Below, piece by piece: positions 45,828 through 46,811 of a stretch of DNA of 64,000 nt; the first letter of the stretch is position 1, and each line of letters opens with the position of its first letter. The DNA is taken from sequence record PQ741806.1; one strand, 5' to 3'. The notes under the pieces were generated by a model, which was not told where the DNA came from, did not search any database, and saw only the letters and a program-made list of their open reading frames with translations. The stretch is from Pseudomonas phage Pa_AttikonH10. The position numbers and the translations under genes are program-made.

Positions 45828-46811
45828 TTAATCGAATACAAGACCACTACTAGTTGCTTGGTCATCCACATCTAGAGTAGACTGACGCTTACGCATATTA
45901 GCTTTGGCTCGATTCATCATTTCACGACGTTCTTCTAATCGCTTACGAATATCTTCAATAGATAGGCCATTGATCACAAAATGCATTTGATCGAAATCAT
46001 ATTTTTCAGGATCAGCATAACCAGTAGTACGAGTTAGAACTGTACTAATTGATACATCGCGATCAGGATCAGTGTATAGTGAAGCAATAGAAATTGGATC
46101 CAGAATAGCCTGAGCTTCTTGACGATCGAAACACACGTGTAATTGGACAGTCTGTACAGGTACATCATGGTGCTTATGGAAGTGTGCCCAGTTAGTGATA
46201 TCCATTAGATCAAGACTTTGGTGTTCTTGATTAAATAGAATTACTAGTGCATTTAGTACTTCAAGAATGTTTTGGTTCACCATTGATTGCGGTATACCTT
46301 CAACATTCTCATGATAGTTAATAATCATCGGAACTTTACTAACAGAGGAAACCCCTTCAAAAGTCTTAAGGCTACCACTGCTATTACGAAGACTAATATC
46401 ACTGTCGTAAGATCCAATGACCACACTTACAACTACTTCACCTTGTTGTTGTAGATGACTAACAAGAGAAGGACCAATAGTTGAACCAGAAGCACCACCC
46501 ATTGAATACACTACAATGTTAGCATCCCCTGCTGGGAAATGATGGGCAATGGCAGGAATGTGTGAAGAGATTAGTTCTGCGGCTGCCTTACGATCTTTAC
46601 CCATACCGATAGCACGTTTACGTGCGGTCTGGTCAGCTAGCTTAGTATCCGCTTCAATAATGATCGTATTATCGTCAGTATTGTGTTTGTGTTTATTTTG
46701 TACACTGGTATCAATGTAGCAAACATCCTCATGATAACCATGGAATAGTTCACCAATACGGAAACCAGCACCACCACAAAAGTAAATTCGAGTTTTTACT
46801 TTAGACATCAT
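45828..46811 (-). CDS. phuZ: PhuZ phage tubulin/FtsZ-like GTPase
   Basis: IYFCGGAGFRIG (T1 loop), SMGGASGSTIGP (tubulin GGGTGSG-like T4 loop), LDLMDITNW, HFVINGLSIEDI, acidic C-terminal tail. 327 aa. Confidence 0.8.
   Translation of the reverse strand: MMSKVKTRIYFCGGAGFRIGELFHGYHEDVCYIDTSVQNKHKHNTDDNTIIIEADTKLADQTARKRAIGMGKDRKAAAELISSHIPAIAHHFPAGDANIVVYSMGGASGSTIGPSLVSHLQQQGEVVVSVVIGSYDSDISLRNSSGSLKTFEGVSSVSKVPMIINYHENVEGIPQSMVNQNILEVLNALVILFNQEHQSLDLMDITNWAHFHKHHDVPVQTVQLHVCFDRQEAQAILDPISIASLYTDPDRDVSISTVLTRTTGYADPEKYDFDQMHFVINGLSIEDIRKRLEERREMMNRAKANMRKRQSTLDVDDQATSSGLVFD

Follow-up and report, generated by a model that had tools for sequence, protein, structure and literature searches.

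The DNA analysed here, a 64,000-nucleotide (nt) stretch of Pseudomonas phage Pa_AttikonH10 (PQ741806.1; hereafter the window), is almost certainly part of a Phikzvirus (family Chimalliviridae) infecting Pseudomonas aeruginosa, and it carries the genes for the phage tubulin PhuZ and for the nuclear shell protein chimallin (ChmA). The window spans phiKZ genes from approximately gp26 to gp80, on the reverse strand, and its genes, judged by their sequences, are the experimentally characterized phiKZ genes in all but name. An initial annotation of this DNA had predicted a nucleus-forming jumbo phage with a spindle, a prediction that is supported through identity to phiKZ proteins. What that annotation missed is only that the window is phiKZ in all but name, and nothing is left to predict. 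Experiments have already demonstrated the nucleus-and-spindle lifestyle of this phage species, and the finding is therefore counted as already known, as are the gene calls. At approximately 99% identity to the phiKZ proteins, this isolate would be expected to form a nucleus and a spindle too. Since the window is Phikzvirus, everything known about phiKZ, from the nucleus and spindle to the two RNA polymerases and the import system, carries over to it; the gene calls alone make no open question testable.

Four parts of the window were used as megablast queries against GenBank phages. The matches are to P. aeruginosa phiKZ-like phages only, in approximately 45 records, with 95–100% identity over the full query; phiKZ itself (NC_004629) is 98.3% identical at the DNA level in the chmA region, and more than 40 Phikzvirus records, phiKZ amongst them, show 98–100% DNA identity. 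The closest relative is kmuB around phuZ (100%, positions 45000–48000), Bobae around chmA (100%, 29600–33200) and PA02 over positions 1–25000 (99.8%). Because the best-matching isolate changes from segment to segment, this isolate is a mosaic member of the species group and not a copy of one deposited record. The segment-wise best matches also point to recombination amongst co-circulating Phikzvirus isolates. When 28 annotated phiKZ proteins, gp34 to gp73, were compared with the window by tblastn, 26 were present, in the same order and with 94–100% identity; the other two, the HNH protein gp56 and also gp72, gave no match. No tRNA or tmRNA genes were found within the 64 kb.

Tubulin and chimallin genes

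The genes central to the nucleus-and-spindle reading, with two neighbouring features, are as follows.

45828..46811, minus strand: phuZ, homologue of PHIKZ039 (gp39), encoding a phage tubulin of 327 amino acids (aa), 99.4% identical to phiKZ gp39
31213..33093, minus strand: chmA, homologue of PHIKZ054 (gp54), encoding the 626-aa chimallin, the nuclear shell protein (PF25677, 1117 bits)
33094..33404, minus strand: spacer upstream of chmA, AT-rich (GC 0.27), the expected promoter region
35968..38163, minus strand: divergent family B DNA polymerase, homologue of PHIKZ050 (PF20286, 1040.9 bits; 100% identical to gp50)

The initial annotation had recognized PhuZ by its T1 and T4 GTPase loops and its acidic tail, and the open reading frame (ORF) has exactly the limits it proposed. 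The product matches PHROG 4733 ('tubulin PhuZ') over its full length (E=4e-118) and the phage-type C-terminal domain TubZ_C_2 (Pfam PF22334) with 128 bits over positions 1–88 of 88; it is identical at 325 of 327 residues to the crystallized PHIKZ039 protein (PDB 3ZBP/3ZBQ, E=2.6e-218). On alignment with PhuZ-201 the GTPase residues are present: the T1 loop GGAG (residues 13–16) is aligned with GGTG, and the T4 loop GGASGS (residues 105–110) with GGGSGS. D201 and D204, in the motif LDLMD, align with the aspartates of LDVHD in PhuZ-201 (chain 3J5V), where the T7 catalytic aspartates are D187 and D190. The last 14 residues, DVDDQATSSGLVFD, include four acidic and no basic residues and are aligned with DADDNVDEDGMV of PhuZ-201.

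The phiKZ protein, which differs from the PhuZ of the window at 2 of 327 residues, polymerizes with GTP into filaments, and the tubulin C-terminal tail acts in the protofilament, where it contacts the next subunit (PMC3678025). The phiKZ tubulin is listed as PhuZ, and the spindle positions the nucleus (PMC8314001). Filament and spindle formation by the protein encoded here may be taken over from this 99.4%-identical relative; in line with the established function of the family, this tubulin would hydrolyse GTP and form filaments that set the position of the nucleus within the cell.

It is very unlikely that 45828..46811 encodes instead a segregation TubZ of plasmid or prophage type, or an inactive tubulin relic, and not a spindle-forming PhuZ. 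Aylett et al. did name the phiKZ protein 'TubZ' (PMC3678025), and the Pfam Tubulin GTPase domain matches residues 12–143 with 29.9 bits, just below the 33-bit cut-off. Against this, the GTP-dependent filaments described in the same paper are made by a protein that is listed as the PhuZ of phiKZ (PMC8314001), the T1, T4 and T7 residues are intact in the window, and no tubR- or tubC-like partner is annotated beside the phiKZ gene. TubZ versus PhuZ is a matter of naming, not of function.

The sub-threshold Tubulin score is also a caveat to reading the window as a nucleus-and-spindle phage, together with two further points. According to PMC11724907, PhuZ is dispensable in some nucleus-forming phages, and because of this the presence of PhuZ alone does not define the lifestyle. 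In addition, the megablast searches with the four parts returned no exact genome match to the whole window from GenBank phages, and therefore the isolate itself has not necessarily been studied before. In a family as divergent as PhuZ a Tubulin score below the threshold is common, and near-identity to a solved structure outweighs it; none of the data contradict the assignment to a nucleus- and spindle-forming Phikzvirus.

The gene adjoining phuZ, a gp40 homologue (45291..45785, minus strand), has a weak dual-specificity phosphatase signature. Its product contains the motif HCxxGxxRS and scores 31.3 bits with Pfam DSPc, below the cut-off of 33.5, and it is labelled a phosphatase in some GenBank records.

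The 626-aa ORF, proposed initially as a candidate chimallin, is indeed chimallin. It matches Pfam PF25677 (Chimallin_Phikzvirus) with 1117.2 bits over positions 1–626 of 627 and PHROG 4795 ('nuclear shell protein') with E=5.8e-229, and 620 of its 626 residues (99.0%) are identical to those of phiKZ gp54. Solved relatives include the chimallins of PhiPA3 (8FNE, E=4.6e-164) and 201phi2-1 (7SQQ, E=2.3e-135), as well as 8IGG and that of Goslar (7SQT). Residues 14–625 align with residues 25–633 of the 201phi2-1 chain and, because the alignment extends so far in both directions, both termini of ChmA, comprising the N-terminal segment (NTS) and the two C-terminal segments (CTS1 and CTS2), are present. 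In chimallin lattice assembly, these three segments dock on neighbouring protomers (PMC9365700). ChmA, which ranks amongst the earliest and most plentiful of the phage proteins, forms an enclosure around the phage DNA (PMC8314001).

The GC content at third codon positions (GC3) of chmA, singled out in the initial annotation as high, is 0.416, the maximum in the window (mean 0.264, SD 0.048, for 46 ORFs of at least 150 codons). The overall GC content of the gene, 0.477, is likewise the highest of these 46 ORFs; that of the genome is 0.37. The phage host is a high-GC bacterium. The high GC and GC3 of chmA would fit adaptation of its codons to very high expression. High GC3 is also the sole support for another reading, entered as a caveat in the initial annotation itself, in which the protein is an HK97-fold major capsid protein and not a nuclear shell protein, since such a composition suggests a highly expressed structural gene. 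This reading is extremely improbable. The profile check of chimallin against capsid families, as proposed there, gave the full-length chimallin match and not one capsid family in Pfam or PHROGs; solved chimallin structures and the phiKZ shell protein match as described above; and in phiKZ the role of major capsid protein belongs to PHIKZ120 (PMC8244752), a gene number far outside the gp34–gp74 interval mapped to the window.

The synteny that had been put forward as evidence for chimallin is retained. The order in the window is gp50 DNA polymerase, gp51–53, chmA and the gene for the beta'N subunit of the non-virion RNA polymerase (nvRNAP), that is, the gp50–gp55 order of phiKZ, and published work relies on the same argument, placing gp54 homologues between the genes for DNA polymerase and the RNA polymerase beta subunit (bioRxiv 10.1101/2024.03.27.586873). 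chmA was described as lying directly upstream of beta'N; the two genes are adjacent and co-oriented, but a 394-nt non-coding spacer separates them.

The promoter of chmA would be expected in its upstream spacer. In phiKZ, differential RNA sequencing places a primary transcription start site with an early promoter motif and a secondary one with a middle motif at PHIKZ054 (PMC8244752). A sequence taken here as the early motif, TATATTAC, has a copy at 33166–33173. The window holds nine matches to it, against 7.5 expected, which is not significant; eight of the nine are on the gene strand. A sigma-70 promoter scan around chmA gave chance-level results (eight sites versus 8.6), and a simple terminator scan of the same surroundings found none. 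A hairpin at 30854..30886 was missed by the latter, most likely because internal mismatches break the outer AU pairs and the stem rule stops before the U run.

Genes for nuclear import factors also lie in the window.

18063..19736, minus strand: imp1 (picA), homologue of PHIKZ069, nuclear import factor, 99.8% identical to gp69
21444..22184, minus strand: imp6, homologue of PHIKZ067, 100% identical to gp67
26726..27337, minus strand: imp3, homologue of PHIKZ059, 99.5% identical to gp59
39271..39807, minus strand: imp2, homologue of PHIKZ047, 98.3% identical to gp47

Imp1, Imp2, Imp3 and Imp6 function in nuclear import (bioRxiv 10.1101/2024.03.27.586873). Amongst the nvRNAP subunits, gp55, gp68, gp71 and gp73 have counterparts with 99–100% identity to phiKZ by tblastn; the ORF at 11661..13694 equals gp74 in length and is assigned to it by length only. 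It is scarcely conceivable that the adjacency of chmA and beta'N is incidental and that the window comes from a jumbo phage without a nucleus, a reading for which no supporting point was found and against which stand the four import factors and four nvRNAP subunit genes, at 98–100% identity to phiKZ, and the same chmA–beta'N order in PhiPA3, 201phi2-1, Phabio, Psa21, Noxifer and PS119XW. The features by which Chimalliviridae are recognized, namely chimallin, split multisubunit nvRNAP genes and import factors, are all found within this 64-kb part of the genome, which can hold only a portion of the 68 core genes of the family (PMC11724907).

A nucleus and spindle would arise from these genes in the following manner. 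ChmA would be made early and in large amounts and would self-assemble into a protein lattice around the replicating phage DNA, with its N- and C-terminal segments making the connections. The window also encodes the nvRNAP subunits (gp55, gp68, gp71–73 and gp74) and the import factors Imp1, Imp2, Imp3 and Imp6, which would serve the nucleus, and PhuZ filaments would position it.

Group I introns in the RNA polymerase genes

Two nvRNAP genes are interrupted in the window.

29682..30818, minus strand: beta'N exon 1 (homologue of PHIKZ055), aa 1–379, 99.7% identical to phiKZ gp55 1–379; PDB 7OGP chain A
29377..29681, minus strand: beta'N intron 1, group I, 305 nt, without an ORF; RF00028, 88.9 bits
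29269..29376, minus strand: beta'N exon 2, aa 380–415 (PTLQRG...KAPN), from tblastn with PhiPA3 gp054; junctions as in 7OGP_A
28776..29268, minus strand: beta'N intron 2, group I, 493 nt, without an ORF; RF00028, 79 bits
28557..28775, minus strand: beta'N exon 3, from A416 and the catalytic DFDGD (417–421) to the stop codon, from tblastn with PhiPA3 gp054
13725..16149, minus strand: nvRNAP beta N gene (homologue of gp71–73), split by a third group I intron
about 14649..14952, minus strand: third group I intron, without an ORF; RF00028, 84.2 bits

The nvRNAP identity given to the gene downstream of chmA in the initial annotation stands, and is that of beta'N (7OGP_A); the ORF named there (29679..30818, 379 aa), however, covers exon 1 only. 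The Rfam group I intron family RF00028, with a gathering score of 50 bits, has three matches in the window, all on the minus strand (29430–29679, 28844–29164 and 14703–14931). The exons of beta'N were delimited by tblastn with the intron-less PhiPA3 gp054. Both 5' exons end in U and both introns in G, and the reading frame is restored. The joined exons encode 487 aa, which match 7OGP_A with E=6e-261 and are 100% identical to it over 104 aa across the junctions. The chain is labelled 'PHIKZ055, PHIKZ056.1' in the PDB, and DFDGD at 417–421 agrees with the numbering in the paper on the phiKZ nvRNAP structure (PMC8287921). For the third intron, too, a U before it, a G at its end and an in-frame product can be assigned. 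On these features, the three interruptions of the beta'N and beta genes are classed as group I introns, with splicing predicted.

The positions of the introns coincide with conserved parts of the polymerase. Introns 1 and 2 flank the PTLQRG...KAPN segment, immediately ahead of the catalytic DFDGD motif, and the third intron splits the beta gene inside a conserved motif, between HGG(N) and KGV. Its 5' splice site can be placed only to within 3 nt: 7OGP_C has FHGG-KGV, and the rule of a U before and a G at the end of the intron also allows FHGGNKGV. The three introns have the same 3' end, CUGAACAYAACG. An in-frame UAA opens both intron 1 and intron 3, and these two show 79% identity over 245 nt. 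In its 3' half, the intron core is approximately 76% identical to the T4-like td intron and to many other phage introns, and it is because of this resemblance to td-type introns that the query 1–25000 also gave stray matches to Escherichia and Salmonella phages.

Introns at phiKZ gp56 and gp72 were predicted long ago, as cited in PMC10914365; we found no published description of the ORF-less forms or of the extra intron 1. ONT-cappable-seq gave no evidence of self-splicing at phiKZ gp56, gp72 or gp179 (PMC10914365). Unlike that outcome, the subunit sequences in the nvRNAP structure determined by cryo-electron microscopy are the exon-joined forms, with DFDGD at 417–421. Intron 1 is carried by at least ten of the relatives listed, and not by phiKZ, KTN4, SL2 or OMKO1. 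There is thus polymorphism at the catalytic motifs of the nvRNAP, in the presence or absence of an intron and of an ORF within it, amongst near-identical isolates. Intron homing endonucleases have been proposed as weapons between co-infecting chimalliviruses (PMC11620839), and this polymorphism bears on that idea.

The spacer between chmA and beta'N

A conserved element lies within the 394-nt spacer (31212..30819, minus strand).

30842..31203, minus strand: conserved structured RNA element, approximately 360 nt; minimum free energy (MFE) z −3.2, nine compensatory pairs, no Rfam match

We see somewhat less than an even chance that this spacer encodes an undescribed structured RNA of approximately 360 nt, present in Phikzvirus and Pawinskivirus and, in blocks, in Miltoncavirus, and more strongly constrained than the two essential genes that it separates. 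If this holds, the gene encoding the early protein that these phages make in the largest amount is followed immediately by a conserved structured RNA.

The spacer has a GC content of 0.44–0.47, versus 0.37 for the genome and 0.27 for the spacer upstream of chmA, and contains no ORF longer than 38 aa. Its MFE is lower than that of all of 100 shuffled sequences, and an Rfam search at E<=1 gave no match. By BLAST, the element is confined to P. aeruginosa chimalliviruses. It is 95–100% identical within Phikzvirus and approximately 85% identical, over positions 10–371, in the Pawinskivirus-like phages PS119XW, HPP-Temi, PA1C, BRkr, HHBS36_1 and phiLBG22; phiHQ matches the 3' half only, and PhiPA3 matches in blocks with an insertion of approximately 140 nt between them. 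In a global alignment of the window with PS119XW the spacer is 82% identical, compared with 59% for chmA DNA (47% for the protein) and 65% for beta'N exon 1. Conservation of the non-coding spacer thus exceeds that of both flanking essential genes. Indels between the lineages are of 1–3 nt, mostly 1 or 2, and a reading frame is not kept.

A consensus structure of 119 pairs in 17 helices was obtained with RNAalifold from ten sequences, with 99.5% of cells paired. It contains nine compensatory pairs, in nine different helices; shuffled alignments gave 3.8 ± 1.3, none of 500 reaching nine, and slid controls gave 0–1. These figures are to be read with the caveat that one alignment served both to derive the structure and to score it, and that this alignment consists of only two deep lineages and PhiPA3. 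The compensatory pairs include the long-range helices 12–15/153–156, 103–108/142–148 and 218–225/316–323. Compensatory changes are also seen within clades, in W10-2 (115:137), in HPP-Temi (187:197) and in window/phiKZ (235:294 and 248:284). Recent horizontal transfer could explain the high identity of the spacer, but not the compensatory pattern.

The element is predicted to fold into three multi-helix domains, with UUCG and GAAA tetraloops. It ends in a 13-bp UUCG hairpin (30886..30854) followed by UCCUUUUUUU, with a U run at 30842..30850 that stops 23 nt ahead of the beta'N start codon. Transcriptome data for phiKZ assign the nvRNAP genes and PHIKZ054 to one operon (PMC8244752). The element may be the 3' region of chmA, acting in cis and ending in an intrinsic terminator; as such it would keep the chmA mRNA, which is very abundant, stable and would restrict how far transcription continues into the nvRNAP genes. 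A possible alternative is that it is a processed, stable non-coding RNA.

The conserved blocks were not found in the spacers of 201phi2-1, Phabio, Psa21 and Noxifer, which have only the terminal hairpin and U run in common with the window. A search of IMG/VR for distant copies returned PhiPA3 only. A metagenome scan with the terminator block gave no matches, and a looser two-block pattern gave 120 loci, all attributable to chance, with none of the other conserved blocks. The chmA 3' region of 201phi2-1 (L005 1885..2095, 211 nt) is itself strongly structured (z=−6.6). It begins with a GGGAUC-GAAA-GGUCCC hairpin, common to Phabio, and ends with a UUCG hairpin and U run ahead of gp106. Pseudomonas chimalliviruses may generally have a structured region 3' of chmA, even without sequence conservation.

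A term search found no mention of the spacer RNA in the main text of PMC8244752, PMC8545117, PMC10914365, PMC12571901 and bioRxiv 2023.09.22.559000, which cover the phiKZ transcriptome, Grad-seq, ONT sequencing and ChmC eCLIP. Seventeen phiKZ non-coding RNA candidates are contained in the supplementary tables of PMC10914365, and an earlier description of the spacer RNA is possible. In the GenBank records of relatives, short ORFs labelled 'hypothetical protein' are annotated over the spacer RNA and the group I introns, as in Bobae (L003 3634..3905 and 5120..5970) and HPP-Temi (L011 124..565), and the beta'N exons are annotated as separate genes; other records leave the spacer blank. The short ORFs and the separate exon genes are probably gene-caller artefacts.

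Comparison with known systems

In phiKZ, gp39 has the same length as the PhuZ of the window, 327 aa, and the same neighbours, gp38 and gp40. The two substitutions, S83 in the window (A in phiKZ) and A97 (T in phiKZ), lie outside the T1, T4 and T7 loops. Chimallin, at 626 aa and with a full-length PF25677 match, closely resembles phiKZ gp54 and differs from it by six conservative substitutions (T17, A32, L258, V312, L426 and V430 in the window). The nvRNAP beta'N gene (gp55 and gp56.1 in phiKZ) has a predicted spliced product of 487 aa that is identical to 7OGP_A across both junctions, but its introns differ. The reference phiKZ lacks intron 1, so that exon 1 runs directly into exon 2. Its version of intron 2 contains the HNH gene gp56, an insertion of approximately 900 nt that is missing here, and at the position of the third intron phiKZ has the endonuclease gene gp72, where the window has none. 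Phage Churi has an HNH nuclease gene after exon 1, in the place that intron 1 occupies in the window.

More distant relatives retain the same arrangement with greater divergence. The chimallin of Pawinskivirus is only approximately 47% identical to the ChmA of the window at the protein level. In 201phi2-1 and PhiPA3, which belong to different genera, the tubulins (gp59 and gp28, respectively) are of the same family, the match to PhuZ-201 having E~1e-47. The chimallins of these two phages (gp105 and gp53) are likewise of the same family and show the same chmA–beta'N synteny, although in 201phi2-1 an extra ORF, gp106, lies between the two genes. For both 201phi2-1 and PhiPA3, the nucleus and spindle lifestyle has been seen by microscopy (PMC8314001).

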